Of a stretch of DNA of 58,116 nucleotides, positions 13,168-46,218 are shown piece by piece. This DNA is from a virus: the UHGV virus genome UHGV-0195737; one strand, written 5' to 3'. How positions within the stretch are numbered: position 1 is the first letter of the stretch; every line of letters starts with the position of its first letter. A model generated the notes under the pieces. The model was not told the DNA's origin and made no database searches. It saw nothing but the letters and a program-made list of their open reading frames with translations. The translations under genes and the position numbers were made by a program.

Positions 13168-13299
13168 TTTCTCACCTTTCGATTTTGTGATCTGCGTCAC
13201 GCTAAATCGCGCCAAAATGGATTGATCGCGATTTTTACAATATGTATATTTTACTCAAACGAAGGGGAAGTTAACAAAACGGCATAAAAGGGGTACGGG

Positions 13300-14519: not shown

Positions 14520-14528
14520 CACGAAAAA

Positions 14529-14557
14529 CCCCGCTCCGGCGGGGTGTTATTTTATTT
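14529..14557 (+). terminator. Rho-independent terminator of cassette b
   Basis: CCCCGC-TCCG-GCGGGG stem-loop followed by TGTTATTTTATTT. Confidence 0.6.
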
Positions 14558-14834: not shown

Positions 14835-15188
14835 TTAATTGATAACTTGTTCAAATGTCGCGGTTAGCGTGTATACAGGGCCGTCTTTCGTCATGTTCCA
14901 TTTTCGGCAGACAAAAAGCCTTTGCTCCCCATCCATTGATGGTGTCCAGTAAAACGCCTCGACCGCGCCGCGCGCCCGTAAAAACGCCTCTGCCTGGACC
15001 GCTGGATTGCCAGCGTCACCACATCCGGCGCTCGAACCTTTAAAAACCACGCTGTAGTCGTCGAGCAAGGGATTAATCCCCTTAACCTGGCGTTGCTCAT
15101 AACCATCACCCAGCTTGACGACCGATACGTTTGGCTCCCTGGTTACGCTGTAGCTTCGCTGCGGCGTCCAGGTAAACACTTCCGGCAT
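14835..15188 (-). CDS. M: Minor tail protein M
   Basis: Matches lambda M as recalled (GDGYxQR, YSV, C-terminal FEQVIN); SD GGGGGAAG. Confidence 0.8.
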   Translation of the reverse strand: MPEVFTWTPQRSYSVTREPNVSVVKLGDGYEQRQVKGINPLLDDYSVVFKGSSAGCGDAGNPAVQAEAFLRARGAVEAFYWTPSMDGEQRLFVCRKWNMTKDGPVYTLTATFEQVIN

Positions 15189-15216
15189 ACTTCCCCCTAT
15201 AAGTTACATTTTGTGT

Positions 15217-15245
15217 ACATCTTTACGCGTTGCTACGCGAAAAAT
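15217..15245. repeat. 29-bp conserved hairpin element, copy 1
   Basis: ACATCTTTACGCGTTGCTACGCGAAAAAT; 28/29 identical to 27307-27335; upstream of M. Confidence 0.5.
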
Positions 15246-15356
15246 GAGATATTCATCACAAGAATTATAACCAGTTTACAAAATGGCTTCACACAGGACG
15301 CAACAAGATGTATATAGAAAGCAAGAAGAAAGCAGTACCAACAAAGGAGGCCCAAG

Positions 15357-15524
15357 ATGAAAGGCAACGATAAACACTACGCAGTCGTAATGCTTAACGA
15401 CGCATTCGAACAAGTAGAAGTAGCGATTGTTAAAGGCTTCGATGATGCGTTCAAAATGGGCCAGTTCTACATGAACGTGAAAGCAAACGAATATCGGGAT
15501 TTCTACCTGAAAGCGGTCAACTAA
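15357..15524 (+). CDS. Hypothetical small protein (moron cassette c)
   Basis: 55-aa ORF with strong SD AAGGAGG; not in ORF track. Confidence 0.45.
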   Translation: MKGNDKHYAVVMLNDAFEQVEVAIVKGFDDAFKMGQFYMNVKANEYRDFYLKAVN

Positions 15525-15542
15525 GGATGATGGGGGTGGGCT

Positions 15543-15797
15543 ATGAAACTGGTAGCGATTGATAAAAACCTGAAAGCACAGAAAAACGCACAGGACCGGA
15601 TCATCAAAAAAGGTAAGGCTTTATTAAACGCTTTCCTGAGAAAAGAAGCCTACCCCAAAAAATTACGCGATGGATACGGCTACAAAATGGATATTAACCC
15701 CGACTGGCGGCTTTACAGTCAGGACTTAAAGGTTTGGTTAATTGTTGAACACCACAAATACAATGAATTATGCGGCGTGCGCGGTTGCCATAAGTGA
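15543..15797 (+). CDS. Hypothetical basic protein (moron cassette c)
   Basis: 84 aa, Lys-rich, C-terminal HHKYNELCGVRGCHK; SD GGGGGTGGG. Confidence 0.45.
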   Translation: MKLVAIDKNLKAQKNAQDRIIKKGKALLNAFLRKEAYPKKLRDGYGYKMDINPDWRLYSQDLKVWLIVEHHKYNELCGVRGCHK

Positions 15798-15805
15798 GGT
15801 GGGAT

Positions 15806-15898
15806 ATGGAAGATGATAAATTTACATGGCGGGAGATCTGGAATATTTGGCAGGTGATTTTCGGAAGGGGATATGTCGCGCGGAATGGTCGATTATAG
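15806..15898 (+). CDS. Putative microprotein (30 aa)
   Basis: SD GAGGTGGG then ATG; Trp-rich. Confidence 0.25.
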   Translation: MEDDKFTWREIWNIWQVIFGRGYVARNGRL

Positions 15899-15904
15899 GG
15901 GTAA

Positions 15905-16087
15905 ATGATGATTATTAATGAAACGGAAGAATGTAGGCGAATCACTCTTAGCATTGAGTATGACGAAAGATTATGGCTTGAAAGCGACTGCGAACTTATC
16001 GTAATAGACAAAAAGCAAGCCGCCGAACTAATAAAAGCATTACAGCTTTATGTAAACAACGAATTTAAAAACGACGAAGTTGAATAA
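15905..16087 (+). CDS. Hypothetical acidic protein (moron cassette c)
   Basis: 60-aa ORF, AT-rich codon usage unlike flanking tail genes. Confidence 0.4.
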   Translation: MMIINETEECRRITLSIEYDERLWLESDCELIVIDKKQAAELIKALQLYVNNEFKNDEVE

Positions 16088-16094
16088 AAGATAA

Positions 16095-16125
16095 CCCCGG
16101 CATTGTACCGGGGTTTTGTTTATTT
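16095..16125 (+). terminator. Bidirectional rho-independent terminator (cassette c / H)
   Basis: CCCCGG-CATTGTA-CCGGGG followed by TTTTGTTTATTT; T-rich on the other strand as well. Confidence 0.6.
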
Positions 16126-18462
16126 GCGGCGTGGTTGCAATATGCCGCCAGGACGCGTGCTTTGTTCTCTGACTACACTCATAGCTACGCGCTTCATTGT
16201 GTCTTCAAGTCTGCGGCTATCATCATCACTAAAACCGTTTGTCGTTTGAACTGTGATACTGACAGGCATGTTGATGCCACCGCTGCCGCCCAGGTCGCGG
16301 CCTGGTGTAACACGCCCACCTTCACCGGGGATCATGTACTGTTTCCCGCCAGTGGTAGTAAACAGTTCTGGTATACCGTGCTCACCAACCCTGTAAAGAT
16401 TGCCACCGTTAACCGCGCCGCCGTTGTAGCGCCCGCCGCCGAAAATCGACGTCGCCAGTGACATGATCGCGGATAGTGCCGCCGCGCCAGCCGCCGCCCA
16501 GCTACCGCCAGTTGACGCCGCTGTCGCCGCTGCCGCCGGGGCCGCTGCCGCTGCAATCTGACCTTGCGCCGCTACCGCGCCAGCCGTGGTGCTGGCTTGC
16601 GTTGCCTTACTCTGACTTTCCATCATGATTTGATCGGCTATCCAGTTCCCGGCAATGTCGGCAAGCCTGTTACCCACCGTACCGAGTATATTGCTTCCCA
16701 GGTTAGCAAACATCTCACTGAGGGATTGCGTACCGTTCAATAATCCGGTGATAGCGTTGCTCATGCCGCCTTTTAAGCCGCTGACGCAATCGCCTATTAG
16801 GGCGTTAGTATCGCTTTGCGCCTGCCATTGTTCCCACTTCAGGTTGGCGATGGTTTGCTCATGCTGGAGTTGTTCAGCCCGGATTTGTGCCTCTGAGGCG
16901 TTCAGATCTAACAACATTTGCTTACGGATGGCCCATTCATTTTGCGCCTGCTGAATGGGATCTACTTGCCCTTTGAGTTTATCCATAGGATTAATCATGT
17001 TATCCCATTTATCTTGCAAGGCTTCGGCTTCAAGTCCAGCCAGCGTGCGATCCCTTTCTTCTCTTATGCCCTTCATAGCGCCTTTGTATTCAAGGAGCGT
17101 GATTTTGCCCTGGGCGAAGGCAGCATCAATGGCCATGCCGCTCTTTAATGCTTTGCGCATGGCGGCGGCGTCTTTGTTGTACTGGTCGGAAACACTGATA
17201 CCCTGATCGCCTAAGCGGTCATAGTCTGATTTTTTCGCTTTCTTCTGTTTTTTCGGCTTGCCAACTGGTTTGTCAAATCCGGTGATACTGCCATCATTAT
17301 TTGAGGCTTGTTCTTCCTTCTGCGCTTCTTCTGTGCGTTTAAGCATTCCTTGATGGTCTTCCCATGCTAACATCGCCCAACCTAAGCGTTTACCGTATTT
17401 CTTGAACGGATCGCTGTTATATTCATCCTTGCTTTTTCCGACCAATTCCTTCGCCCACTTATAAGCATCCATCATTGCCTTAATTGGCGTCACCATTTCG
17501 ATGATCTTGTCGGCAACCTCCTTAGCCTTAACCGCAACATCATCAAACATGTCGATAAACTCACCTCCAGCGCGCTTCAATGTATTAAAGCAGTTAGCTG
17601 CAAAACTCACTTTTTCGCCCAGCCATCGTCCACCAGTGGCAGTATTATCCAGGATAGTGACCACTCTGTCTGACACGCCTAATAGATCATCGAGTTTTTC
17701 AACCAGTCCCATGACTTCGATTTTTAGCGAATTGAACGCAACGCCGGACGTGCGCGGGAGTTGTTCAAATTGCTCGTTTGTTTCTTTCGTTGCCGCCTGG
17801 ATAGCGTTGACCATTCTTTCAGCGGTGATCTTACCTTCCAGCATTTCGGCGCGGAACTGGCCCATTGATAACCCCATTTGTTTTGCCATTGTTTGTACGA
17901 TGGTTGGGGTGTTTTCCAGTAAACTGTTAAATTCTTCCGCACGCAGTACGCCGCCGTCAACCGCCTGCCGGAATTGGCGCATGGAGTTAGACATTTGTTC
18001 GGCTGATGCCCCGCCTAACGCCCCCATTTTTTGAAGCGTGCCTACCAGATTAAGGATCTGCCCTTCGGTGGCAGATGTATTTTTTAATGAGATGGCTAAA
18101 CCTTGCCATAGGTCGGTTGTATCTTTAATACTTTGCCCGGTCTGGTGAGCGATAGATTTAAGGCCATCAAAAACCCGGTTTGCGCTTTCTGCGTCACCTG
18201 TCAGCATTTTGATTTTTATGCGTAGCTGTTTTGCCTGCTCTGCCATGTCAATAAACTGGCGCACGGCCTCCGCTGCGACTAACAGGTGGATAACCCTGGT
18301 CAGTGCTTTGATTGATGTTTTCAGTGTATTAACCTGGCGGTCAGCACGTTTTGCGCCGCGCTCGATACTGTCGAATGTCTGATCGGCCTGTCGCTGTACG
18401 ACAAGGAGTTGCCCTGTTTTGGCGTCGATCTCGTAATAAATTGTACCTAAACTGGTAGCCAT
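16120..18462 (-). CDS. H: Tail tape measure protein
   Basis: 780 aa, long alpha-helical protein with Ala/Gly-rich C-terminal segment; sits between chaperone and M. Confidence 0.85.
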   Translation of the reverse strand: MATSLGTIYYEIDAKTGQLLVVQRQADQTFDSIERGAKRADRQVNTLKTSIKALTRVIHLLVAAEAVRQFIDMAEQAKQLRIKIKMLTGDAESANRVFDGLKSIAHQTGQSIKDTTDLWQGLAISLKNTSATEGQILNLVGTLQKMGALGGASAEQMSNSMRQFRQAVDGGVLRAEEFNSLLENTPTIVQTMAKQMGLSMGQFRAEMLEGKITAERMVNAIQAATKETNEQFEQLPRTSGVAFNSLKIEVMGLVEKLDDLLGVSDRVVTILDNTATGGRWLGEKVSFAANCFNTLKRAGGEFIDMFDDVAVKAKEVADKIIEMVTPIKAMMDAYKWAKELVGKSKDEYNSDPFKKYGKRLGWAMLAWEDHQGMLKRTEEAQKEEQASNNDGSITGFDKPVGKPKKQKKAKKSDYDRLGDQGISVSDQYNKDAAAMRKALKSGMAIDAAFAQGKITLLEYKGAMKGIREERDRTLAGLEAEALQDKWDNMINPMDKLKGQVDPIQQAQNEWAIRKQMLLDLNASEAQIRAEQLQHEQTIANLKWEQWQAQSDTNALIGDCVSGLKGGMSNAITGLLNGTQSLSEMFANLGSNILGTVGNRLADIAGNWIADQIMMESQSKATQASTTAGAVAAQGQIAAAAAPAAAATAASTGGSWAAAGAAALSAIMSLATSIFGGGRYNGGAVNGGNLYRVGEHGIPELFTTTGGKQYMIPGEGGRVTPGRDLGGSGGINMPVSITVQTTNGFSDDDSRRLEDTMKRVAMSVVREQSTRPGGILQPRRK

Positions 18463-18500
18463 GATTTAACCTCATACAAAATGTGATCTGTGCCTCTATT

Positions 18501-18542
18501 TTATACAAAATGGCTTTACTTTACCGACTCCATTTTGTATAA
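18501..18542. promoter_or_regulatory. Perfect 13-bp inverted repeat (putative regulator binding site)
   Basis: TTATACAAAATGG-N16-CCATTTTGTATAA upstream of plus-strand cassette d. Confidence 0.4.
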
Positions 18543-18593
18543 GGAAGTCAAAGGAAAAGATAGTTAAACAAAACAATTAAGTGGGGGTGTTTT

Positions 18594-18818
18594 ATGAAAC
18601 GTTATGATGGTATCTATGAAAAAATTGGTGGCTTCCACAAAGGCGAACAATTTAAAATCATCGACGGCGAAGTGTACGCCGGGAGAAACAATAACAAGGA
18701 ATGGGAGCACATTGATCACCCAGCACAAAAGGAAGCCTGGTTGAGATTAGTTAAAGGGTTTCAAGTCGGCAATAGAATCATTAAAGACAAAAACATTGTA
18801 AAAATTGCTGATATTTAA
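18594..18818 (+). CDS. Hypothetical protein (moron cassette d)
   Basis: 74-aa ORF with SD GTGGGGG. Confidence 0.45.
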   Translation: MKRYDGIYEKIGGFHKGEQFKIIDGEVYAGRNNNKEWEHIDHPAQKEAWLRLVKGFQVGNRIIKDKNIVKIADI

Positions 18819-18829
18819 CGGGGTGTTTT

Positions 18830-19183
18830 ATGAAACGGTTAGCGAAAGTAGTAATGATGGTGGCGCTGGTTGGTTTTGCATTTAACGCCCACGCCGACGA
18901 TAAAATGGATAAGGCTATTTATGAATGCGCTCACGCCGCGCACCTGTACGACATAAGACACGGTGACGGTACGGGGTATAAAGAAATTATTTTTGACATG
19001 GCGTGTAAACAAAAAGCCTTAATACCATTTCTTGACAAGGAAATAGTTAAAGCAAGAAAAATACACGAAAAATACGAAGCATTGAAAGCGGAAAATAAAG
19101 ATCCCGAAGTCGCGGAAGTGTTCAGACATGGAGAAATAAAGGGGCACGCAATCCATAACAGAATCAACGCTGGCGCGGCCTAA
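18830..19183 (+). CDS. Secreted/periplasmic protein of unknown function
   Basis: 117 aa; signal peptide ending AFNAHA-DD; conserved Cys pair. Confidence 0.5.
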   Translation: MKRLAKVVMMVALVGFAFNAHADDKMDKAIYECAHAAHLYDIRHGDGTGYKEIIFDMACKQKALIPFLDKEIVKARKIHEKYEALKAENKDPEVAEVFRHGEIKGHAIHNRINAGAA

Positions 19184-19193
19184 TAAACAAAAC

Positions 19194-19216
19194 GCCCGGA
19201 TCTACCGGGCTTTTTT
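19194..19216 (+). terminator. Bidirectional rho-independent terminator
   Basis: GCCCGGA-TCTA-CCGGGC followed by TTTTTT; T-tract on the other strand too. Confidence 0.6.
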
Positions 19217-19879
19217 CTGCCTGCGATTTTTCATTCTTTCCAGTGCCTTTCTAGCGGCCTCCATTCGCTCGTCATAAACCTGTTTATTTATCTGAACGTT
19301 TGGTTTAGCTTTCTCGTTTTTCGCGTCTGGCGGCATTTTAGCGCGTACAGCGGCCCTATATCCGGTCATGGTCATGGCCCATGCTTCCGATTCAGATAAT
19401 CCCAGGTGAGCAACGGCAGAATAAACGAATTCCAGCACGTTAAAGGCTGGCTTATATTCCCCTTCCGGGATCTCTCCGGCGTCTTCTTCCGGCCCGTCAC
19501 CGATTAGACCGTGGTACATGCAATGCTGTGCCAGCGTGATAATATCTTCGGTTGGCATTAATCCGGGTTTCTGTCGTAGCTTGCCCGCAGGAGTAAATCG
19601 ACATTCGCCCACCAGGTCTGTTATATCGTCGTCAGAGCAACATTTCAGGATATGGATGGACGATTGCACTATCTCACCATAACACCGCGCCAGAATGCGA
19701 TTACGGAGGTCTGGATCGTTAGGCAGGCGGGAGGGATACTTGCTACCGTGAATGGTTGCGAATAACTGGACAAGCTCACGATCGCCGCCAATTTTCGCCA
19801 TTGCAGCGAAGCAGGGGTTAAACACGTAGCGTTTATTATCCACCACCGCCGCAAATTGTCCGGTACGAACATGAATCAT
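19202..19879 (-). CDS. Putative tail assembly chaperone
   Basis: Position between major tail gene and tape measure; start set at ATG with SD GGTGA; no frameshift partner seen. Confidence 0.4.
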   Translation of the reverse strand: MIHVRTGQFAAVVDNKRYVFNPCFAAMAKIGGDRELVQLFATIHGSKYPSRLPNDPDLRNRILARCYGEIVQSSIHILKCCSDDDITDLVGECRFTPAGKLRQKPGLMPTEDIITLAQHCMYHGLIGDGPEEDAGEIPEGEYKPAFNVLEFVYSAVAHLGLSESEAWAMTMTGYRAAVRAKMPPDAKNEKAKPNVQINKQVYDERMEAARKALERMKNRRQKKAR

Positions 19880-19890
19880 AATTATCACCC

Positions 19891-19915
19891 TAAAAGAAAG
19901 GGGCCGGATGGCCCC
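19891..19915 (-). terminator. Terminator/attenuator after major tail gene
   Basis: GGGGCC-GGAT-GGCCCC stem followed by TTTCTTTTA on minus strand. Confidence 0.55.
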
Positions 19916-19923
19916 ATCAAATG

Positions 19924-20436
19924 TTATTCGGTTTGCTGTTCTTCTTCTGTTCCGGCGTCTTCTTCTACCGGAAGATCATCAACGCCTACTTGTCCGGCGC
20001 TTGAACATTCAATAGACCAGGTAGAAACATCATCGTGAGGATTTTCCTCTTCAAAGCTGGTGCAAAGAAATGGGCCTTCGGTCACATCAAGCGGGGAAAC
20101 AATTTTCAACCACACATACGGCTGATTACCAGTGGCCTCGCCTGGCGTCATTACGTGACGTTTTAGTGCCTTCTGGTTATGGATTTCTTCGGTACGGGAT
20201 ACGCCATCACCGGAGAAGGTAACAGATTTGTAAGTTACCATTGATTCCTTTGTGTAATCTGCTGATTTATCAGCGGTGGCGTCGGCAGTTTCCCATTCAA
20301 CGGAAAGCGTTTTACCGCGCATCATGCCTAATGCCTGGTATTCCTCATCGGCTGGCTTCGCATTCGGGCAAGCAATAGCGAAGAATACCGCGACGTCGCG
20401 GCCTGTAAATGTGCCTTTTTCGCAAGTTTGAGACAT
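19924..20436 (-). CDS. Putative major tail tube protein
   Basis: 170 aa with acidic C-terminal tail; strong SD AGAGG; followed by terminator, position upstream of chaperone. Confidence 0.5.
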   Translation of the reverse strand: MSQTCEKGTFTGRDVAVFFAIACPNAKPADEEYQALGMMRGKTLSVEWETADATADKSADYTKESMVTYKSVTFSGDGVSRTEEIHNQKALKRHVMTPGEATGNQPYVWLKIVSPLDVTEGPFLCTSFEEENPHDDVSTWSIECSSAGQVGVDDLPVEEDAGTEEEQQTE

Positions 20437-20449
20437 GTTATTTTACCTC

Positions 20450-20836
20450 TTATCTAGATATGATGGTCTGAAAAGCTACTGTGAAAATAAAGCGCCCTTC
20501 CCTTGTCTGCATCACCGGAATAGCGCCTGTTGGCTTCATGAGTGTAATTTTATCAGTTTTAAATTCACTTAACATACTTTGCCGGATGGCGTCCGCCAGG
20601 TCTTCCACTTCACTGATATTTGCGTCATTACGCGCAGAAATAACCAGTATGCGAAAATAGTCGCGGGTAATGGCTTCCTCTCCCGGTGCGCCGCCGTTCT
20701 GTTGGATTACGATGTATCTGTCATTATTCGAATTACTTCGCTCATTCCAGAAACGGGCCTGCAAAATATAGCCCTCATCGTATCCGTGGGATTGTATCCA
20801 ATCCCTTACATTGTCGTAGACTTCGCTGCGCTTCAT
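20450..20836 (-). CDS. Putative tail completion / tail terminator protein
   Basis: 128 aa; position in head-tail joining block. Confidence 0.4.
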   Translation of the reverse strand: MKRSEVYDNVRDWIQSHGYDEGYILQARFWNERSNSNNDRYIVIQQNGGAPGEEAITRDYFRILVISARNDANISEVEDLADAIRQSMLSEFKTDKITLMKPTGAIPVMQTREGRFIFTVAFQTIISR

Positions 20837-21297
20837 ACTTTGTAACCTTCTACAATCTCTTTATAAATATCATCAGCGTGGTTAGGATCTTCGAATGCCT
20901 TACGCAAAAATCCAGGCTCCGCGTTTGGGTCCCAATATTTATCCTTGCCAGTACCGCCGCCGAAACTAATTACCTGTTTCGGTCCGAAATCTGAAAGGTT
21001 ATTTGTTTTACCGAAATCTTCGCGCGGCTGGCCTTTTAATGTGCCCGGCATATCATGCACCCATTCGGCGTAGCGGGCCGTATACCCCAGGCGCAATTGC
21101 AAGCCTTCCGCCGTCTTGCCTATATATTGGAACTGGCTGTTGATTAAAAAACCCGTATCGACTGGCGTCATATTCGCAGCAAAGCCACCAGCCAGCATAC
21201 CGACACGCCATAAAACCTCATGCGTCTTCTTGTCGGTTATTTCCTTTAATTCCTGCTTCAATCGCTCCCTTACGCGCTTCACTCCCTTAATCGGCAT
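20833..21297 (-). CDS. Head-tail joining protein (HK97 gp10-like)
   Basis: 154 aa; resembles HK97 gp10 family by position and size. Confidence 0.5.
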   Translation of the reverse strand: MPIKGVKRVRERLKQELKEITDKKTHEVLWRVGMLAGGFAANMTPVDTGFLINSQFQYIGKTAEGLQLRLGYTARYAEWVHDMPGTLKGQPREDFGKTNNLSDFGPKQVISFGGGTGKDKYWDPNAEPGFLRKAFEDPNHADDIYKEIVEGYKV

Positions 21298-21299
21298 AA

Positions 21300-21674
21300 T
21301 TAACCCCCTGTCACAATTTTATAATCCGGTGTGTCGTTAAACATGCTCATGTCCCATTCAACAATTCCGGTAATAATATTGGCCCCAGCCGCCAGCGGAT
21401 CGAGAATATCAGTAGTGTCGCCAGTGGCAATCATCCAGCCTTTTTCCGGGCGCTGTACTGGCTGCATATTGTAAAGCAGTTCGGTAAACACGGTTATCGT
21501 ATTGCTAACCTCGTTGCCGTTTGAGTCAGTCGCTGTGCCGTCGGTGCGCTCCCATGCACAGTTAACCAGGTACGGCTCACCGTATACATCGGAGTTTGTC
21601 CAGTCGTCATGCGTCACGGGGTAAATGGTGGCTAATGCCTTGTAGCTGAATCGCGCGATCTTACTCATAACCAT
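21300..21674 (-). CDS. Putative head closure / head-tail connector protein
   Basis: Start set at first ATG (track start is TTG); position after capsid genes. Confidence 0.4.
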   Translation of the reverse strand: MVMSKIARFSYKALATIYPVTHDDWTNSDVYGEPYLVNCAWERTDGTATDSNGNEVSNTITVFTELLYNMQPVQRPEKGWMIATGDTTDILDPLAAGANIITGIVEWDMSMFNDTPDYKIVTGG

Positions 21675-21846
21675 AGCTCCACTTAACAATTTTTGGATGG
21701 GTTTTCGCCACGCGCGGGCAAAGAATTACCCACTGACCAGCATCATTGAGGTAGGCCGCCACCTGTCGCCCGGTGTCAGTCTTCACCCATACGCGGGTAA
21801 ACAGCTTCGGTAATACCGGATTCGGTAACGTTAGGTCATTCCACAT
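21661..21846 (-). CDS. Hypothetical small protein
   Basis: 61-aa ORF in head-tail block. Confidence 0.35.
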   Translation of the reverse strand: MWNDLTLPNPVLPKLFTRVWVKTDTGRQVAAYLNDAGQWVILCPRVAKTHPKIVKWSYGYE

Positions 21847-21848
21847 GG

Positions 21849-22235
21849 TTACATCCTCCCGCTTTTACCAATCCATAGTCCGGCGTGCGCGGTAGCTTCG
21901 GGATCTGCCGGGATTAGTTCGGCTGTGCAATTATGTTTGTCAATTGAGCGAAGCAACGAGCAAGCTGCCTTCCATTTTTTATTGAAATCAACGTAGCGGT
22001 AAGACTGGCTTGCGCCGTTCGGGCCTGTGTGTGAGGAAACGTATTTATTCGCCTGCGTGAGTCCTAACAGGCCAATCAGGTAAAGTTGGATCAATGTTGC
22101 AGTGGAGGCCGGATAATTGGCATCAAGGCATTCATTAACGCTGTTAGCCTGCTCCACCATCAAAGACAAGATAATGTCTGGCAGGTCAATACCCTGGCTT
22201 TCAAGATATTCCCGCGCCTGTTCTGTAGTGACCAT
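21849..22235 (-). CDS. Putative head-tail connector (gp6-like)
   Basis: Start set to ATG with SD GGAG; track start lies inside the upstream terminator hairpin. Confidence 0.45.
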   Translation of the reverse strand: MVTTEQAREYLESQGIDLPDIILSLMVEQANSVNECLDANYPASTATLIQLYLIGLLGLTQANKYVSSHTGPNGASQSYRYVDFNKKWKAACSLLRSIDKHNCTAELIPADPEATAHAGLWIGKSGRM

Positions 22236-22252
22236 TTTGTTTGCTCCACATA

Positions 22253-22281
22253 CAAAAAAAATCCCCGGCATCGCGCCGGGG
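22253..22281 (-). terminator. Terminator after major capsid gene
   Basis: CCCCGG-loop-CCGGGG stem followed by ATTTTTTTTG on minus strand. Confidence 0.55.
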
Positions 22282-22301
22282 AGTTACAGGAAACAGATAG
22301 A

Positions 22302-23351
22302 TTATTCGTGACCGTAAACGACACCGGAACGGCCCAGCATGTCGGAAGTGATTTGTAAACCTTCTGCTGACATGATGCGGAAGTTATAGTTGTCGGTCGG
22401 CATCATACGCGGCAGCGGTACTACACCAGTAGTCATACCGATCAGTGGGGTAACTACATCTTTACGGCGTTGATAGCCGAGAATTTCGTTGCCTTTCAGG
22501 GCGAAGGTCTGAGTAATTTCACCAACCGGGGCAAACGGTTTGATAATATCCAGAACACTACCAACGATAGCACCGTTAACGATGTGCGGACGTGCCAGGT
22601 TAGCCATGATTTCCGGGGATACCCACAGACGATCGTATTTAGCAACGAAGTTGTTGCGGGCCAGTACACCGAATTCACCAACGGTGAAGAAATCGATAAT
22701 CTCTTCAAAGCCTGCGGTAGTCAGGTCAATGGTCAAAGTAAGCTGTTGAGTGTTTTTGTGGTTTTTCAGGCCCATTGCTTTATGACCATCAACAACCATG
22801 CGTTCATTGCCGTTCAGATAAAAATCGACGCGTGCTTTGTTGAATTTTTTCAGTTTCAGGCGCTGGCTATCCAGTGCAAGGTCAATGCCTACGGTATTCA
22901 GGCCAGCGGCATGACGCCAGTTAACACCGTAACCCGCTGCGAACATCGGGATCGGGTCGCCATCGCTACCGTATTCGGTGTGGTCGAAGCCATGCGGAAC
23001 TTGACCGTCCATAGACATTACGACCTCATCGTTAATATCGCCAGCCACGCTGTACATTTTCAGCGTTTTACCGATAGGCAGTACGGTTTGTACAGCCATC
23101 AGGTCGTTGACGATCTCGATACCGATTTCTTCGGTGTTCAGTTCGATGATCTGGTTATCGATTTCTTTCCAGAATTCTTTCTCGAAGCCGCCGACGGCGT
23201 TACATGCCAACATTTCAGTGGTCATGTTTGCTTTGTTAGCTGCAATCATGGCGTTATGCTGAACGTTGAAGATATTACGTTGCGCCCACAGTTCAGCCCA
23301 ATGCGCTTGAAGGCGGCTATTAGCGGCTAAATTTTCTTTAGTAAAGTACAT
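22302..23351 (-). CDS. Major capsid protein
   Basis: 349 aa; follows decoration gene, followed by terminator; SD AAAGGGG. Confidence 0.75.
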   Translation of the reverse strand: MYFTKENLAANSRLQAHWAELWAQRNIFNVQHNAMIAANKANMTTEMLACNAVGGFEKEFWKEIDNQIIELNTEEIGIEIVNDLMAVQTVLPIGKTLKMYSVAGDINDEVVMSMDGQVPHGFDHTEYGSDGDPIPMFAAGYGVNWRHAAGLNTVGIDLALDSQRLKLKKFNKARVDFYLNGNERMVVDGHKAMGLKNHKNTQQLTLTIDLTTAGFEEIIDFFTVGEFGVLARNNFVAKYDRLWVSPEIMANLARPHIVNGAIVGSVLDIIKPFAPVGEITQTFALKGNEILGYQRRKDVVTPLIGMTTGVVPLPRMMPTDNYNFRIMSAEGLQITSDMLGRSGVVYGHE

Positions 23352-23368
23352 GTTTTTCCCCTTTTAAA

Positions 23369-23740
23369 TTAAGCAATGCGGACGCGGACGAAATCAACGT
23401 CTTCTAAGGTGACGTTTTCCTGGCAGAAAGCAACGGTTACTTCACCCAGCTTGATAGCCTGGTCTTTCACGTATTCACCAGCATCAAGGCGCATAGCGAA
23501 CTCGCGACCTTCTTCCACGTAATCAGCTACAACCGTTTCACCTGCTGCGATGGCGTCACCAATACCTTTTCCTTCATGGTATGCAGGGTTAACGATATAC
23601 AGGCGGCCCGTTGCGTCAGTAGCGTTTACGAACACACCATCAACCAGGGCAACCAGTTTTCCCGGCAATACTTCTTCGCCTGCTGCGTAGGTTTCGGTAA
23701 TGGATTTACCATCAATATTTACACGACGAAAACGAAACAT
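23369..23740 (-). CDS. Head decoration protein (D-like)
   Basis: 123 aa immediately upstream of capsid gene. Confidence 0.5.
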   Translation of the reverse strand: MFRFRRVNIDGKSITETYAAGEEVLPGKLVALVDGVFVNATDATGRLYIVNPAYHEGKGIGDAIAAGETVVADYVEEGREFAMRLDAGEYVKDQAIKLGEVTVAFCQENVTLEDVDFVRVRIA

Positions 23741-23756
23741 TGTGATCCCCTCTTAA

Positions 23757-25040
23757 TTAGAAATAAGTGTTAAAGTCTGGTACTTCGCCTTTTTTGCCTT
23801 CATCAGCGGCATTGGTTGCCAGCGGCGCGGCTTTGCCCAGGTTTTTAAACATTTCCTCTAACGCTTCACCACTCAAAGCGTTAGCAACAATTTCGCCGTG
23901 AACTTTTGCTACTGCGGCGCGTTTTTCTTCGACTTCTTTATTTGCGTTGGCTGCAATTTCTTCTTTAATTGCTTTCTGATTGGTCTGTAATTCTTCTACG
24001 CTTGCCTGTACTGGTTTTAATGCTTCTGCTACTGCATTAGCGATATTAGCGGCTAAACCTTCGTTAATTTCTTTTACCAGTTCGGCGCGTTCTTCTTTGG
24101 TCAAAGGCATGTCGAGATCCTCTTTTTTGTTGGCCTGGATTTTTTCTTTCAGGATGAATAAATCAGATAGGTGTTCAGCGAATTGAGTAAACCAGGATTT
24201 CGATTCCTCGTTAGTTTGCAGTTCGCCATCATTGAGAATTATTTTATCAGCCTGTTTTTCGTAGTTGTATCTTTCCGCACAGTTTTCATTGGTGGCGATT
24301 GTCACCTCTTTATCAGTGAAGTCCACCACGTATACGTAATCAGCATCAGGGAACATTTCCCGCGCGGCGGCGGTTAACTGTTTTTCAAGCGTGCGATAGC
24401 TGTTTTCTTTCATTGCCACTGCCATTAATGGTGTAGCTTGTTCAGTATTAACCATCAGGCCGACACCTTGTTCCGGCGATGCGGCTGGCGGCTCATGCAG
24501 TAAAATAGCGTCATGGTCGATCGACATGATTTTCACTACATGGTCAGCACCCTGGGCTTTCATTTCTTCGGTAGCTGGCATACGTTGACGATATACAGCA
24601 ACGGAGGACCAGATCGGATCTTTGCTTTCTCCTTTCTCCAGTGCTTCCAGTCGGGTTAATAATTCGCGGCCCTGTTCTGAATGGCTGGCGGTTTCTACGT
24701 CCACCCATTTTTCCACATAAACACGGTTGCCGCGTAATTCCACATTTCTATTCCACGCCCCACAAAAACCCGTGTTTAATCCTTCCGGGCTAAATGCGGA
24801 AACGAATTTACCATCAACGGTGGGATGGCCCAGCGGGGCAAGTGTTCCCTCCAGTGACTGATAGTTAGCGATAATTTCAGTTTCCGGGTAATACTCCCGA
24901 TTCATAACGATATTGAATGGCAACGTGTAGGACGGAACGACAATATGTTCGCGCCCGTTATACGTTTCCCGGCGAATGGTATTAGCGGTTAATTTGGTGT
25001 TAACCTGAATCAATTCTTTTTCCACGGTTATTACTCCCAA
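23757..25040 (-). CDS. Putative prohead scaffolding/protease protein
   Basis: 427 aa; C-terminal third is Ala/Glu/Lys-rich coiled coil typical of scaffolds; track start is TTG, a GTG with SD GGGAG lies 15 nt downstream. Confidence 0.45.
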   Translation of the reverse strand: MGVITVEKELIQVNTKLTANTIRRETYNGREHIVVPSYTLPFNIVMNREYYPETEIIANYQSLEGTLAPLGHPTVDGKFVSAFSPEGLNTGFCGAWNRNVELRGNRVYVEKWVDVETASHSEQGRELLTRLEALEKGESKDPIWSSVAVYRQRMPATEEMKAQGADHVVKIMSIDHDAILLHEPPAASPEQGVGLMVNTEQATPLMAVAMKENSYRTLEKQLTAAAREMFPDADYVYVVDFTDKEVTIATNENCAERYNYEKQADKIILNDGELQTNEESKSWFTQFAEHLSDLFILKEKIQANKKEDLDMPLTKEERAELVKEINEGLAANIANAVAEALKPVQASVEELQTNQKAIKEEIAANANKEVEEKRAAVAKVHGEIVANALSGEALEEMFKNLGKAAPLATNAADEGKKGEVPDFNTYF

Positions 25041-25978
25041 TCATTACCATATTTAGCGTGCGCTACCTTATAGTTTTCTTGCGCCCGTTCTAAAATTCGT
25101 TTGTTTAATATATTACCGTCTTCATCCACCAATACGGTAATCGTGCTGCATTTACAGTTAATTGAGTTAGGAGATCTGCTCCACCATTCGCGCTGCTCAT
25201 CTATGGTGTATGTCTTTCCGTGCCGCTGTGCGTGTGATAGCCTGGTTGTCGGTGATAATGCCGAGATATGCATTTGCTTAGTGCGGAGGTTGAATTCTTC
25301 CGTCGCCGCTTCAGCCTCATCCATACGCGCTGTGCGTAACGCTGTGCATATTTCCGTTCGGGCAATACGTTTGCACCTGTACAGGGGCAATTGCGTTTCC
25401 TGCTGCAATGTGCGCGCTATTTCTAGTGGATTTAAGCCACGGGCCATCCCTTCCGTTAGCCGTCGGGCCATATCCTTTTTGATCTGTGCGGTCAGCCCGC
25501 GCATTTCCTCAAATACACGTGTCCGGACCAGGGCAAGGCGTATGCGATAAGGTGTACTGGATAACACCGCCGACACTTCCGGGTAAGCCCTGGCGTATGT
25601 AACCGACTGGTTGGCAAGGTTGGCATATTCCTGTGCCGTGCCGCGCTGATAGGCGACCTTCACGTAATCCTGCCAAAACCAGAATGAATCAGGATCTGAC
25701 AGTTCGAATATCTCGTCAATCATTCGACCAGCATCATCCAGGAGATCATGCAGTTCATCCATGTAAATCTGGAATGAGTATTTCTTATTCACCGAAAGGC
25801 TGTGCGGTATCTTGTCCAGTATATCGACATAAGGTTGGGCCACCTTCTTTAAGCACGCCTTAAATCGCTTGTTAGCGCCCGACCGTAACTTACCTGTCAT
25901 GGTCGGGTCTTCGGTGTTATTTGGCATTATTGCGGACGGCGGAATCTTTTTGATTATTCTCTTTACCTTCATCTTCAT
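25031..25978 (-). CDS. Head morphogenesis protein (SPP1 gp7 / Mu F-like)
   Basis: 315 aa; position after portal, overlaps portal 3' end. Confidence 0.55.
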   Translation of the reverse strand: MKMKVKRIIKKIPPSAIMPNNTEDPTMTGKLRSGANKRFKACLKKVAQPYVDILDKIPHSLSVNKKYSFQIYMDELHDLLDDAGRMIDEIFELSDPDSFWFWQDYVKVAYQRGTAQEYANLANQSVTYARAYPEVSAVLSSTPYRIRLALVRTRVFEEMRGLTAQIKKDMARRLTEGMARGLNPLEIARTLQQETQLPLYRCKRIARTEICTALRTARMDEAEAATEEFNLRTKQMHISALSPTTRLSHAQRHGKTYTIDEQREWWSRSPNSINCKCSTITVLVDEDGNILNKRILERAQENYKVAHAKYGNDWE

Positions 25979-27290
25979 CGTCCTCGTCTTCCAGTTCTAC
26001 TTCCTGCGTCGGGCCTTCGTATCCGGCAGCTTCGCGGATTTCTTCACCGTCGAATATTTGCTCCCCGGTGGCTAAACATGCCTGGTTAATCTGTGCCATC
26101 TTATGTGCCGCTTCCAACATTTCGGCTTTCGTCATGGCGTTAAGATCATCCCATATCACTGATATATCGATCGGCATTGCAATCAGACGAAGATCAGCCA
26201 GCTTACGGAACAGAATTTCAATCTCCCCGCCGATTTCCTCGCGTCTGGTCATACAGCGGTTATTGAAGTAGCGGAGGTCTTCGGTTGATGCGCGTTCACC
26301 CTGTTGATTCCCAACAAGAATACGCGTTGGAATGTCAATCCCGGCGGCGGCGGTTTGCAGGTTGACGTCATAGGTTGCCGATGGATCGGCTACGGTAGTG
26401 ACCAGTGGGTTAACGGTAGCGCCTTGTAACGCCATCATCACGTCATTACCCCTGTTCATTTCAGCGGTGGCCTCGTTGAATTTCTCGCGTAGCTCTGTAA
26501 CATCGCAATCATACGTCGCGGCCAAGGAACGGAAATCAATTTCCTTATCGAATGAGATAGCCAGTTGGCGTGCTGCGTTTTTCAGGAAAGATTCACCGCT
26601 ACCGCCTTCCACTTTCTCCAGTGAAACAAAGGCGTTATAGGACGGCTCAAGGAATGCAATGGCGTCTTCGGAATAGTCACCGAAGATGAAAATACGGTCA
26701 GCGTGGATCTTCCGGTTTATGGTTTTCCCGTTGATACGCTCCTTGTACTCCCACCAGGTAGGCAGGCCATAGGTTTCGCTATCCGGGTTTTCATCGAAGT
26801 CTTTCGGTGTCAGTGCGCCCGCCCATACAGGTGAAAACTTCTCGATCGCCGTTCCCTTAGTCACTGGTTTTTCCCACGGCTGATTATCTTTGACGTGGAT
26901 TAACAGGCCAGCATAACGACCAATCAGGCGGCGGCGGTCGCATTCTGAGATAGTGCGCCAGAAACGATTGTCAAATTGCTTTTTAATTGCCCTTTCCCAT
27001 GCCGTTTCCTTTTCAGCACGCTCGTCTTCTGTACCCTCGATAATAACCGGGGGAGTGCGCCAGCAAGTACCTACTATCTTCTCGATGGCCCCGTGAGCGA
27101 TACCACCGCGACGATACAGCTTATATAAATCGCTGTAGGTAATTTCTTCTTTAAATCCGTATTCACTCCATGCTGCGTGGCGTTTTGCATCAATACCCAT
27201 TGAGAATGGATGTGCGGCAGCGTAGCGGGTCATTGCTGCGTGGCGTTGTTCCATTGCAGCATTAACCGCCAATTCTAAATTGGATGGCAT
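25917..27290 (-). CDS. Portal protein
   Basis: Position directly after terminase large subunit; start set to second ATG with SD AGGAG. Confidence 0.7.
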   Translation of the reverse strand: MPSNLELAVNAAMEQRHAAMTRYAAAHPFSMGIDAKRHAAWSEYGFKEEITYSDLYKLYRRGGIAHGAIEKIVGTCWRTPPVIIEGTEDERAEKETAWERAIKKQFDNRFWRTISECDRRRLIGRYAGLLIHVKDNQPWEKPVTKGTAIEKFSPVWAGALTPKDFDENPDSETYGLPTWWEYKERINGKTINRKIHADRIFIFGDYSEDAIAFLEPSYNAFVSLEKVEGGSGESFLKNAARQLAISFDKEIDFRSLAATYDCDVTELREKFNEATAEMNRGNDVMMALQGATVNPLVTTVADPSATYDVNLQTAAAGIDIPTRILVGNQQGERASTEDLRYFNNRCMTRREEIGGEIEILFRKLADLRLIAMPIDISVIWDDLNAMTKAEMLEAAHKMAQINQACLATGEQIFDGEEIREAAGYEGPTQEVELEDEDDEDEGKENNQKDSAVRNNAK

Positions 27291-27306
27291 AATGTTTACT
27301 CCTGAA

Positions 27307-27335
27307 TACATGTTTACGCGTTGCTACGCGAAAAA
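27307..27335. repeat. 29-bp conserved hairpin element, copy 2
   Basis: ACATGTTTACGCGTTGCTACGCGAAAAAT between terminase and portal genes. Confidence 0.5.
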
Positions 27336-27368
27336 TAGAAAAATTTGTGGGGGATTGTGAGGCAGATT

Positions 27369-28853
27369 TTAAAATCCACGCAGGCGCTTAGGTAACATAA
27401 GGCCCATAGCCTGTGGCTGGCTTAATTCAGTGATACCCCATACCATTGCGTCGAGTCGGTCCGGGGATTTTTTAGCGGTAGCTGGCACGTATTCCATCAT
27501 TTGGTTTTCCAGCGTGTACAGTTCGCCAGTGTGAGCGACCTTACCTTGCGCATACAGTGCTGATATTGGCTCTGCACGGGCGAATTTACCCTTACTGGCG
27601 TGCACCTTAACGATGCGACCATCGAAGCGGGCGTTGCGTAAGGTTGCCTCCGCCATCTCCCCGCCCTGGTTGGTTTCGATAACTATCGCATCAGCTTCGT
27701 GGATCTTGTAAGCGCGTATTGCAGTTTGTGCCCAATCGTTAGGCGACATGCGGCCTGAGTAGTCACCATCGACCGAGTACTGCGCATACTTCCCGCCACC
27801 ATAAGCGGAACACGCCACAATTCCGGTTTCGTCCGATTCTTCCGATGATGTTGTCGCCGGGTCGATAGCAATTACCGTGCGGATCTTGTCCTGCGTTATC
27901 TGCATCCGGTGCGCAGCGGTTATCATCGCTTCCGTCCATAATGCGCCTTCCTCGTCGAATTTACGCGGGCGCTGCATATATTGGGCTTCGAATGATCTGC
28001 GGTGCGCTCTTAGTCCGGCTTCATGGCTATCATTGTGCTTCTTAGGCCATAGCCAGCCATCCGGCAGGTTGTGAGCAATAGGAATGGCGAATTCGTTTTC
28101 AGGGTACAGATCCCAATAACCCAGGCTGTTGTCAATCTTCACGGGCAGATTAAGGTGATGCCACTTCTCACCACTCCCGCCGCGTAGCAGGTAGCCGGAT
28201 AAATCATCGTAATGGATACGCTGCATAATGACGATAACGGGCGTCGCTTGCACTGCCAGACGTGATGCCAGTGTGTCGTTGTAGTTGGTGTTAACCTGCG
28301 TCCTGACCACATCAGAGTAAGCGTCAGCGGGTTTTAATGGGTCGTCAATGATTAACGCACCGTTAAAGCCGGACTCCATATATCCGGCCCTGAATCCTGT
28401 CACCTGCCCTAACGAAGACGTTGCATATACACCGCCGCCGTGTTCCGTCCACCACATCGATTTGGAATTGGCATCATTGCGGATCTTCATAGGCCACATC
28501 GCCTGATATTCCGGCGTACAAATCATACTTCTGACTGTCGATGAATTGAGTAATGCCAGGTTGTTGGAATAGGAAACATGAAGGAAGCGTGTGCGGGGAT
28601 TTATTGCGAGGGAACGCGCCATCATATTGATGGTCGCAATCATGGTTTTACCGTACCCTGGGGGAATGTTAACGATAAGCCGGGTAATCTCACCGTTAAT
28701 AACGCGTTGCAGTGCATCACGGATAGCTAAATGATGGCCTGCGATAAACATCTTCGTTCCGTTGGCCTGCTTATAGAAATAGCGGTTGAAGAACAGGCCG
28801 TCGTTTTCACATTTGGATTGGATAACCCTTTCTTTAATCGTCAACACAATCAC
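27369..28853 (-). CDS. Terminase large subunit
   Basis: 494 aa; Walker A-like PPGYGKT; GTG start overlapping small-subunit stop. Confidence 0.8.
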   Translation of the reverse strand: MIVLTIKERVIQSKCENDGLFFNRYFYKQANGTKMFIAGHHLAIRDALQRVINGEITRLIVNIPPGYGKTMIATINMMARSLAINPRTRFLHVSYSNNLALLNSSTVRSMICTPEYQAMWPMKIRNDANSKSMWWTEHGGGVYATSSLGQVTGFRAGYMESGFNGALIIDDPLKPADAYSDVVRTQVNTNYNDTLASRLAVQATPVIVIMQRIHYDDLSGYLLRGGSGEKWHHLNLPVKIDNSLGYWDLYPENEFAIPIAHNLPDGWLWPKKHNDSHEAGLRAHRRSFEAQYMQRPRKFDEEGALWTEAMITAAHRMQITQDKIRTVIAIDPATTSSEESDETGIVACSAYGGGKYAQYSVDGDYSGRMSPNDWAQTAIRAYKIHEADAIVIETNQGGEMAEATLRNARFDGRIVKVHASKGKFARAEPISALYAQGKVAHTGELYTLENQMMEYVPATAKKSPDRLDAMVWGITELSQPQAMGLMLPKRLRGF

Positions 28854-29335: not shown

Positions 29336-29345
29336 ATTTCACCTC

Positions 29346-30108
29346 TCAATATTTATTGATGATATATACGCAAGCAACAAAACTTGCACAGTATGTAAAC
29401 ACTTCCAACCAGTCGAATAATTCTTTCATTGTTTACCCTTAAATCTCTGTTTTACTTCTTTGTGAATGAGCGCACCAATCATTACAATCACGTATGCGCA
29501 TAACATTATCGCGACAATAAGCAGACCAGAACAAAGCAAGAACATAAGCAGATCAAGAAACTCGAACATGATATTCCCCTACTGGCTATTTAATATCGTT
29601 AATTCTTGGAAGCGCATAAAATGCGCGTCCGGGCTAAATGGCGAAAGCCAGGGCGATAATGACAATAGCTAAAACCATGCACCAAAAATCTGATTCTTTC
29701 ATTCTTTAAGCTCCCGGTAAACATCCACAGCAATAACCACAACGACTGCCACCAGTAATAACATTTCATATGCGTTCATGCTTTCACCTATACGACGTTT
29801 TTCCACCAGAAATACAGGACACAGGCAAAGGCCACACACGCTATAATTTCGTGAAGCTCCATTGCGTCACCATAATCTATAAATATTCACGCCAATACCC
29901 ACGATAAGCACCAACAACCAGATGAGATCGTAGGCGTTCATAATTTACCTCGTTATAACATCGAACAATGCAAGGCCAACAAACAACAAAACTATCAGTA
30001 ACAGGAAGTCGCCCATAATTACCTCTGCATAGACATGACTACCAGAAACAGGCAAAGAATAAATCCAGCCGCCATACCGCCAATGAATGTTAATATCGAT
30101 GCAACCAT
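29346..30108 (-). other. Tandem array of 8 small hydrophobic ORFs (22-47 aa)
   Basis: Starts near 30108, 30016, 29941, 29862, 29779, 29702, 29569, 29429; each one predicted TM helix; several ATGA overlaps or AGAGGTAA-nn-ATG junctions; two begin MNAY. Confidence 0.35.
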
Positions 30109-30110
30109 AA

Positions 30111-36186: not shown

Positions 36187-36373
36187 CGTCACCCCGTTTG
36201 TAAATATGGACTGGCTTAACAGGGATGGCAGGTAACTCGCCGTCGTGTAACGCGCTTGCTATTTTCAAAATTAAATGCGCTTCTGTACCAGTGACTTTCT
36301 TACACCATGCGCCGCCTGTTTTATCTTCGAACAAGATAACAGCGAACTGATCGTTTATTTCCAGCTTATCCAT
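36173..36373 (-). CDS. Hypothetical small protein
   Basis: 66 aa; start overlaps Q stop. Confidence 0.4.
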   Translation of the reverse strand: MDKLEINDQFAVILFEDKTGGAWCKKVTGTEAHLILKIASALHDGELPAIPVKPVHIYKRGDDDEA

Positions 36374-46188: not shown

Positions 46189-46218
46189 AATCTTATTTCC
46201 TTAGTTGAAATTTATGTC

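Follow-up and report, generated by a model that had tools for sequence, protein, structure and literature searches.

A short element before the portal and M genes of an mEpimmI-type prophage recurs in CPZ-55-type islands

The window analysed here, the whole 58,116-nt stretch of the virus genome UHGV-0195737, is an E. coli prophage with 80–84% nucleotide identity to the mEpimmI coliphages mEp021, mEp010, mEp013, mEp044, mEp515, mEp554 and MagusPhagus. Its structural genes all lie on the minus strand, and two of them, the portal gene and the minor tail gene M, are preceded by the same short element, hereafter copy A and copy B, respectively. The element is most likely a discrete, family-specific cis-regulatory signal which marks the start of two particle-building blocks, one running from the portal gene onward and the other from M onward.

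A pattern search of the window with the 29-nt sequence returned two matches, at 15217–15245 and 27308–27336 on the plus strand, identical at 28 of 29 positions, and no chance match was obtained in 100 dinucleotide-preserving shuffles. These exactly two matches bear out the original prediction of a duplicated 29-bp element with this identity, and the gene positions confirm that each copy is upstream of a minus-strand gene, the portal gene or M. The predicted interval 15217–15245 stands; the other, given as 27307–27335, was off by one base and is corrected to 27308–27336. A repeat search extended the pair to 30 nt with 97% identity (15216–15245 and 27307–27336), and a 24-nt core, TTTACGCGTTGCTACGCGAAAAAT, is the same in both copies. 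No third copy of the core was found in the window at up to three mismatches, and relaxed half-site, direct-repeat or diverged patterns gave only chance-level matches elsewhere in it. Similarity between the flanks of copy A and those of copy B did not exceed that of shuffled sequence; because the flanks are unrelated, the repeated unit is a discrete 30–34 nt. Read in the late-gene direction, the unit of the window is ATTTTT-CGCGTAG-CAA-CGCGTAAA-(C/G)ATGTA, and the group consensus is ATTTTT-CGCGTAG-NNN-CGCGTAAA-nATrTAT. An alignment of 30 distinct 40-nt variants gave nATrTAynC as their common 3' extension. The copies are placed as follows.

27313–27336, minus strand: core of copy A, sense sequence ATTTTTCGCGTAGCAACGCGTAAA, in the gap between the large terminase gene (terL) and the portal gene, 22 nt upstream of the portal ATG
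27304–27343, minus strand: extended conserved block of copy A, made of TTTTTCT, the core and CATGTATTC
15222–15245, minus strand: core of copy B, same as the core of copy A in the window, ending 33 nt upstream of the M ATG
15213–15248, minus strand: extended block of copy B, made of CTC, the core and GATGTACAC

The search of related prophages that had been proposed as a check was performed with a capsid-anchored scan of IMG/VR, which recovered 49 related loci with capsid identities of 75–100%. Both copies were present, at both junctions, in every relative covering the junctions, and always in the same orientation (about 50 IMG/VR loci). Seven isolated phages and 30 Escherichia coli prophages also carry exactly two copies per genome at these two junctions. 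A scan of IMG/VR with a degenerate pattern led to 89 stretches, never more than two per contig. When a metagenome scan was anchored on the portal start and not on the element, the same element was recovered in 22 of 22 true matches, and these portal-anchored contigs brought no new stem variant; one further match (L154) was an unrelated chance match. Absence from related phages, which would have counted against the original prediction, is clearly not what was seen; given its presence at both junctions in all relatives covering them, the element very likely has a function. Within the phage collection it was restricted to the seven mEp-type phages, twice in each. Outside the group, a search of 185,579 species-representative genomes gave five matches, all in unrelated metagenome-assembled genomes, which is about the chance number for 19 fixed bases. 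No element was found at the junction of the next-closest portal genes (about 60% identity): the terL–portal junction of ES18 contains two small genes and a terminator, and that of Midgardsormr38 is an 11-nt gap.

Conservation follows the limits of the unit. The core of copy A shows little or no change over 43 distinct portal-junction sequences and the metagenome contigs, and the columns of the extended copy A stretch are invariant or at least 90% conserved in the portal-junction alignment, with variation in the 30 nt upstream. Among the M-junction sequences (38 distinct ones), CGCGTAG and CGCGTAAA never change, save for one TGCG, and the flanks vary; the contrast between a fixed core and varying non-coding neighbours is clearest at this copy. 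Variation among the 30 variants is concentrated in three bases between the CGCG blocks, where the triplets CAA, AAG, AAT, AGG, CGA, CTA and AAA were seen. Some genomes have the triplet typical of copy B at the portal site, and copy B of the window has the portal-type triplet; from this, either sequence passes between the two copies or each site tolerates both triplets. An additional gene separates the element from M in one relative (L012), where the element stays at the head of the unit.

To follow the element in bacterial chromosomes, a 37-nt block was compared by blastn with 5,426 complete E. coli genomes. It was found in 51 of them, at 81 places and at most twice per genome; 30 genomes had two copies, in prophages, and 21 had one. 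The four single copies inspected were all in islands of about 10 kb, equipped with the integrase intZ and inserted between eutB and eutA, which is the insertion position of the cryptic prophage CPZ-55 of K-12. The islands considered are the following.

CPZ-55-type islands: L171, 11798–21905 (E. coli KSC9); L172–L174; L176–L178; CPZ-55 of K-12 itself is L175, 2192–8981

These islands encode a TerS-like protein (PF20901) of the same PHROG, 1482, as the TerS of the window, and YffO of K-12 belongs to this family. They also encode a 726-aa protein, the two ends of which are 55–58% identical to the tape measure protein of the window, an Xis-like protein 51% identical to the product of 54755–55027 and, just upstream of the element, a helix-turn-helix (HTH) protein of the HTH_17 (AlpA/Xis) family. 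The last 21 residues of an island protein of 116 aa match the C-terminus of the 427-aa head protein of the window, at an E-value of 0.008 that makes this a hint only. In the islands with a single copy, the element has the sense orientation and lies 36 nt upstream of the first gene of a seven-gene operon including the TerS-like and tape-measure-like genes, and the first genes of this operon are unrelated ones. This occurrence in satellite-like islands, which the window alone could not reveal, is the most informative observation on the element. The island core is ATTTTTCGCGTAGCAACGC(G/A)TAAACA(T/A)G, and the sequence upstream of it differs between islands. No intrinsic terminator was found in the island operon. 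CPZ-55 of K-12 is a shortened member of the series and does not carry the element. By their gene content, the CPZ-55-type islands are probably satellites of mEpimmI phages, on which they would depend; our literature search found no paper linking CPZ-55 to satellites.

Selection acts on the 28–34 nt themselves, since the flanks of the copies are unrelated and those of the islands differ. Occurrence of the unit in three unrelated contexts, in one orientation and at the head of morphogenetic or particle-hijacking genes, together with its copying by a probable satellite, indicates an autonomous cis-acting expression signal read by a specific, phage-supplied factor. The gene inserted in L012 and the island operon with its unrelated first genes argue against a control device for the translation of one gene, and for the same reasons the translational-control hairpin tied to M that had been suggested for it is disfavoured.

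That the element is a sequence without function, duplicated once, whose copies stay similar through gene conversion and because the group has diverged little, is a very improbable explanation. It would agree with the near absence of variation in the portal 5' region beside copy A and with the visible exchange between the copies. However, the flanks of copy B and of the island copies have diverged or been replaced whereas the core has not, a mobile element of another kind retains the element too, and in about 100 copies the changes affect almost only the three central bases.

Satellites commonly carry the packaging site of their helper, and the element might be a DNA site for packaging or recombination, either a pac-type terminase site mimicked by the satellites or a linker for module exchange. 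The islands do have a TerS-like protein of their own, different terL alleles and island flanks meet near the 5' edge of the element, and the central triplet is swapped between copies A and B in some genomes, which shows exchange. Nevertheless, two direct repeats 12 kb apart are not expected of a pac site, and as recombination sites they would invite deletion of every gene for head and tail. Where the TerS of a phage is of this kind, a pac site usually lies in or near terS. The copy before M has no packaging link, and a second class of islands (class 2) does without the element. We consider this explanation quite improbable.

The genes and signals surrounding the two copies bear on how such a signal could act. 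Copy A lies inside a 78-nt gap between the terL stop codon and the portal ATG. M, a minor tail protein gene (PF05939, 14835–15188), forms a unit with a 61-aa gene, with an opposite-strand cluster upstream (15357–16087) and a second one downstream.

27369–27371, minus strand: stop codon of terL, upstream edge of the gap with copy A
27288–27303, minus strand: translation start of the portal gene (PF06381), Shine-Dalgarno (SD) sequence AGGAG at 27303–27299 and ATG at 27290–27288, sequence invariant in the relatives
15186–15197, minus strand: translation start of M, SD sequence GGGGG at 15197–15193 and ATG at 15188–15186
15264–15269, minus strand: perfect TATAAT, 18 nt upstream of copy B in the direction of M, a possible sigma-70 -10 hexamer of an M-unit promoter
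16093–16115, bidirectional: terminator after the tape measure gene, insulating the M unit together with 14528–14545
14528–14545, bidirectional: terminator after the unit of M and the 61-aa gene, which a transcript started at copy B must cross to reach L-K-I-J
22282–22262, 19915–19900 and 19210–19194, minus strand: intrinsic terminators in the late region
36373–37095, minus strand: gene for a Q-like antiterminator (PF03589, 1e-28; phrog_127, 2e-77), the sole late regulator recognisable in the window

The M unit needs a start signal of its own, because bidirectional terminators and opposite-strand genes wall it off. The terminators inside the late operon likewise require late transcription to be terminator-resistant or segmented; that at 22262–22282 is strong and directly follows the major capsid gene, and the other two flank the major tail gene. 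The window also has an N-like gene, lysis genes and a TerS gene. Pattern searches of the window revealed no copy of the element near the Q-like gene.

Our preferred reading, a tentative one with somewhat less than an even chance, is that the element is a duplex-DNA site for a phage-encoded late regulator, positioned over a weak internal late promoter and pirated by the satellites. Its fixed CGCGTA(G/A) units, T-run and TAAA around a free 3-nt spacer are arranged as in a DNA site bound by a protein. Two parsings of the fixed letters are possible, either a direct repeat of CGCGTA(G/A) at a distance of 10 bp, which explains the fixed TAG and the presence of exactly three free bases, or half-sites TTTwCGCG / CGCGwAAA. 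In either form they would constitute the binding site, which would cover the spacer of a weak promoter without a -35 hexamer; TAAAnA, the invariant sequence that closes the element on its 3' side, would serve as a -10-like hexamer. Binding of the regulator would switch on RNA polymerase, or load an antiterminating factor, and transcription would start a few bases before the SD sequence. The head block and the terminator-insulated tail-tip block would each receive their own late boost. The CPZ-55-type islands would have copied the site before their terminase/tape-measure operon, which would fire only with the regulator supplied by the helper. The fixed letters and free spacer, the ordinary folding and the G-to-A change of the islands described below, and the need of the M unit for a start signal all favour a regulator-binding DNA site. 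So does the precedent of P4, a satellite with late control sites copied from its helper P2. Other precedents are AlpA and lambda Q, with sites inside the promoter spacer (PMC7969949).

Several observations weigh against this DNA-site reading. No sigma-70-like promoter was called by the scan at either copy or at the island copy, and the best internal -10-like hexamer, TAAAnA (TAAACA / TAAAGA), matches at three of six positions and is devoid of the usual final T. At the portal copy, the predicted transcript would have only about 13 nt ahead of the ATG. The analysis brought up no candidate regulator, and the Q-like antiterminator already present should carry late transcription through the whole region. 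The TAG at the centre of the palindromic reading is fixed as well, which is explained by the direct-repeat reading only. Class 2 islands have the same operon with a leader that contains no CGCG blocks, so that islands do not strictly need the element; this leader had no match in the phage collection. Finally, the constant sense orientation, and changes in the stem that keep pairing in sense RNA and not in antisense RNA, fit an RNA element equally well. The TATAAT hexamer is upstream of copy B only, and there is no consensus promoter, with -35 and -10 hexamers 16–18 bp apart, at a fixed distance; an activator-dependent promoter would be compatible with this absence. At the M junctions nTATAAT is kept; the consensus scan made no call there, and no -35 is present.

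Three proteins were considered as readers of the site and set aside. A CI-like repressor was rejected as no similar site occurs in the immunity region. The HTH_17 protein of the islands was rejected too: island L177 has a homologous HTH gene, about 70% identical by eye to that of L172, and no element. The third, a 184-aa protein encoded upstream of terS (30111–30665, minus strand; phrog_1365), has a metalloprotease-type HEIAH (HExxH) motif and an acidic/lysine-rich tail and is not regulator-like. Next to it, 29336–30110 (minus strand), between the lysis region and terS, contains about six very short open reading frames (ORFs) of 22–30 codons, strongly hydrophobic and with their own ribosome sites.

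The alternative that the element acts in the transcript, as a sense-strand mRNA leader, is a close rival of the DNA-site reading, and we would sooner expect it to be wrong than right. It would be a short hairpin in which a CGCG stem is closed by U-A or U.G around an AGNN loop and extended by UUU/AAA; a phage RNA-binding factor or a host RNase would recognise it. It would raise expression of the block that follows, through a 5' end protected after cleavage in the U-run, through antitermination of the nut or put kind, or through opening of the ribosome site. For the window, the original prediction gave the hairpin correctly, with five pairs, CGCGT/ACGCG, and a loop of 4 nt. In most relatives copy B reads CGCGTAGAAGCGCG, where the fifth pair is T:G and pairs only as a U.G wobble in sense RNA. 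Over the 30 variants, 98.8% of the stem cells are paired, the closing pair being U.G in 17, U-A in 10 and unpaired in three (AAT); one variant turns a stem G-C into G.U by a C-to-T change. These closing-pair (A/G) and C-to-U changes, which pair in sense RNA only, speak for an RNA hairpin, and local folds give it a pairing probability of 0.9–1.0 in most relatives. The element is moreover always in the sense orientation, 22–36 nt upstream of a start codon and in transcribed gaps between co-directional genes; copy B occupies about +13 to +36 relative to the conserved TATAAT, the place expected for a leader element; terminators follow downstream (22282–22262, 19915–19900, 19210–19194, 16115–16093 and 14545–14528); and a leader requires no promoter at copy A, where none is visible.

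In contrast, the stability of the hairpin argues little for RNA. The copy A fold (-6.2 kcal/mol, z = -0.34) is no better than shuffled sequence, that of copy B reaches -11.5 kcal/mol (z = -2.2), and in the common island variant the core hairpin amounts to only -4.4 kcal/mol. Whatever the context, the stem keeps its letters, and variation falls in the 3' half of the loop. No compensatory change occurs in the stem among the 30 variants, a count that neither supports nor rejects a structure. The closing pair is broken in the three AAT relatives, and most island copies have a G-to-A change by which the basal pair is lost. There is no boxA, and the loop is unlike the boxB loop UGAAAU of this phage, so that binding by the known N-like protein would not be expected (PMC11893012). 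No Rfam match was obtained, and the island operon offers no intrinsic terminator to override. The hairpin argument of the original prediction is therefore weak, with a z of -0.34 at copy A and a stem which never covaries and is fixed while part of the loop varies. RNase III sites consist of about two helical turns (about 20 bp) of double-stranded RNA; the stem, with four to five pairs, or eight with a mismatch when the U/A arms are counted, is far too short, which excludes the RNase III site proposed for it. The interpretation given in the original prediction is partly supported, an RNA leader and a late-regulator site being the suggestions that retain support.

On the opposite strand, an antisense promoter seems improbable. 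It would combine a -35 TTTACG, a 17-bp spacer and a -10-like hexamer in the flank. Its transcript would run against terL (phage) or the HTH gene (islands) and, at copy B, towards the plus-strand ParE-like cluster, much as in antisense control by paQ or oop of lambda. Copy A does present TTTACG-17-TAGAAA; in the islands the hexamer is TAGAAT, TAGATT or TAATAT, and most copies B have TAAGAT, so that T-A-n-n-A-T recurs in otherwise unrelated flanks. The TTTTTCT flank is kept next to copy A, and plus-strand genes are downstream of copy B. Yet at most eight of 12 consensus positions match and the scan made no call. Three relatives have TGGAAA or TGGGAA and copy B of the window has TGAGAT, with loss of the key A. 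The arrangement was found after many registers had been tried, which makes chance a serious explanation, and by eye the plus-strand cluster has a better site, TTCACA-17-TATATA, at 15288–15316. The candidate downstream terminator hairpin inside terL has uncompensated changes, for which a plus-strand small RNA ending there was rejected as well.

The plus-strand cluster itself (15357–16087) contains a 55-aa ORF, the start of which is kept throughout the phage group, then the gene of an 84-aa protein whose toxin domain is ParE-like (PF24732, 2e-11), and also a 60-aa ORF; the 55-aa and 84-aa genes are a possible toxin-antitoxin pair. Between copy B and the TATAAT at 15264–15269 there is a CRP-like site, TGTGAtgaataTCTCA (15245–15260), centred about 70 bp upstream of the promoter-like TTCACA-17-TATATA. 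At the other junction, the portal ORF has two in-frame ATGs, seven codons apart, at 27309–27311 and 27288–27290. The upstream one is in the 3' flank of the element and has no SD sequence, yet it is the annotated start in mEp021 and the start in the ORF list. In mEp021 the SD-proximal ATG is changed to ATA, leaving TTG as the likely start. Nine relatives (L013, L014, L019, L023, L024, L045, L049, L067 and L165) have about 88 extra nt between the terL stop codon and the conserved portal leader. This insert contains a perfect palindrome, CTTCGAAAAATTTTCGAAG, and a possible 10-codon ORF, and the conserved leader, from AAAATCTGnCTCACAA, is retained after it.

The element was also compared with known classes of signals. 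As an intrinsic terminator it was rejected, since the T-run precedes the hairpin in the sense direction, an A-run follows it on the other strand, and the scan made no call at either copy. As a nut site it has no boxA of the CGCTCTTA / TGCTCTTTAA type upstream, where the sequence is TTTTTCTATTTTT at copy A and GAATATCTCATTTTT at copy B; its invariant stem, variable loop half and zero compensatory changes are the reverse of the boxB pattern. The true nut sites of the window are a 44-nt repeat with 75% identity at 38500–38543 and 46213–46256 (minus strand), with boxA TGCTCTTTAA and a boxB hairpin. Their boxB stems covary (CCGC/GCGG at 38500–38543 versus GCAC/GUGC at 46213–46256) around a fixed UGAAAU loop, and they are probably nutR2 and nutR1 of mEp021. 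The paper on the mEp021 group describes three nut sites and does not mention the element (PMC11893012).

No TGT-N12-ACA dyad, as in P2 Ogr-type promoters, was seen by eye in or upstream of the element. With the 12-mer of RfaH ops / JUMPStart sites, GGCGGTAGnnTG, it shares only GTAGC (5/12), and only GTAG in most copies B. Host palindromes of the REP type were dismissed: the element is in only 51 of 5,426 E. coli genomes, at one or two places, and the inspected copies are all in a prophage or the eut island. No Rfam 15 family matched the window at the gathering score, nor the surroundings of the copies at E-values up to 10. Comparison by eye also eliminated, on sequence or spacing, sigma-54, sigma-28, sigma-32, sigma-E and ECF promoters, the T4 late TATAAATA motif, the CRP, PurR, NarL, marbox, DnaA and H-NS motifs, and the TTGC-N6-TTGC repeats of lambda CII. 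In NagC/Mlc operators the only fixed positions are TT/AA at ±5 and 6, giving TT-N9-AA (PMC4288165); the T and A runs of the element, 15 bp apart, do not fit.

Elsewhere in the window, an inverted repeat, AAATCGCG-N15-CGCGATTT, is located at about 13222–13252 (minus strand) at the start of the L-type minor tail gene. It is downstream of a promoter-like TTGTTA-18-TAAAAT (13277–13248), and its CGCG cores resemble the element, from which it otherwise differs. A dense array of GCGGCGGCGGTGGC-type repeats with a 21-nt period occupies 4984–5498 inside a 1325-aa ORF (1932–5909), near a second 1325-aa ORF (7266–11243).

Among known systems, the closest likeness in arrangement is with P2 and its satellite P4. 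In P2, a short late site is repeated before several morphogenetic operons, and P4 carries an Ogr-dependent site before its own late operon, so that phage and satellite operons come on together. The element is likewise placed before morphogenetic blocks and before the operon of a putative satellite, as in the P2 Ogr/P4 delta system. In P2/P4 the site consists of a TGT-N12-ACA dyad with its centre near -55, and a recognisable -10 follows it, whereas the element is unrelated in sequence and abuts the ribosome site, with neither an activator gene nor a -10 identified. P2, to our knowledge, has no Q-type antiterminator, unlike the present phage with its Q-like gene.

AlpA and lambda Q are small phage-type regulators acting at a short element between -35 and -10, with activation or terminator resistance as the outcome (PMC7969949). 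In Pseudomonas aeruginosa, AlpA serves two promoters per genome and its element, GGGACG-N5-GGTA, belongs to a normal promoter (PMC7969949). The HTH_17 gene just upstream of the island element recalls this system. However, neither copy A nor the islands show a normal promoter, L177 represents an island class with the HTH gene and no element, and the phage offers no more than an Xis homologue that is weakly HTH_17-like. As for a loading site of the AlpA/Q type in general, terminators are present downstream, a promoter-like -10 is found at copy B only, and no element is next to the Q-like gene. The late genes of P1 need the activator Lpa (PMC8198154).

With nut sites the element shares two to three copies per genome, the sense orientation, a position in operon leaders, short GC stems, a purine-rich loop and downstream terminators; it differs by the lack of a boxA, the fixed stem and the partly variable loop, and the nut sites of this phage are elsewhere. 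SAS and ESAS of the Cluster K mycobacteriophages are family-specific, one-orientation repeats just upstream of the starts of unrelated genes, across subclusters; ESAS are inverted repeats without RNA-type covariation, to which no function was assigned (PMC3203893). The SAS unit is 13 bp long, occurs 10–19 times per genome at 3–7 bp from the start codon, contains the SD sequence and precedes non-structural genes only (PMC3203893). The element, in contrast, occurs twice per genome, 22–36 nt upstream of the start and outside the SD sequence, and heads structural gene blocks; its two copies, this distance and the position of the SD sequence outside the unit led us to reject an assignment to SAS/ESAS.

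A late control motif in a phage is familiar as such. In the searched literature, this motif, its placement before the portal gene and M, its coexistence with a Q-type system and the link with CPZ-55 are undescribed, and the element sequence itself is absent.

Taken together, these data raise a broader proposal, doubtful as a whole. There would be a second tier of late control besides Q, in which a phage protein reads a 30-nt signal, as DNA or as nascent RNA. The islands of the CPZ-55 family, including the degraded CPZ-55 of K-12, would be satellites pirating this signal to time an operon that redirects packaging, through the TerS-like YffO, and remodels the particle, through the tape-measure homologue and a possible scaffold mimic. 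If true, this would add a late-control step to a gut-prevalent and recently defined group of coliphages; in the mEp021 group, late control has so far been described only by analogy with lambda, with the N-like Gp17 and a Q-like gene. A satellite with its own tape measure would be unusual. Two sites in each phage genome and one in each island allow a clean test of the question. The shared signal provides a concrete hypothesis for the nature of the long-enigmatic CPZ-55 family and, with one site before one operon, a handle on how these islands sense their helper.

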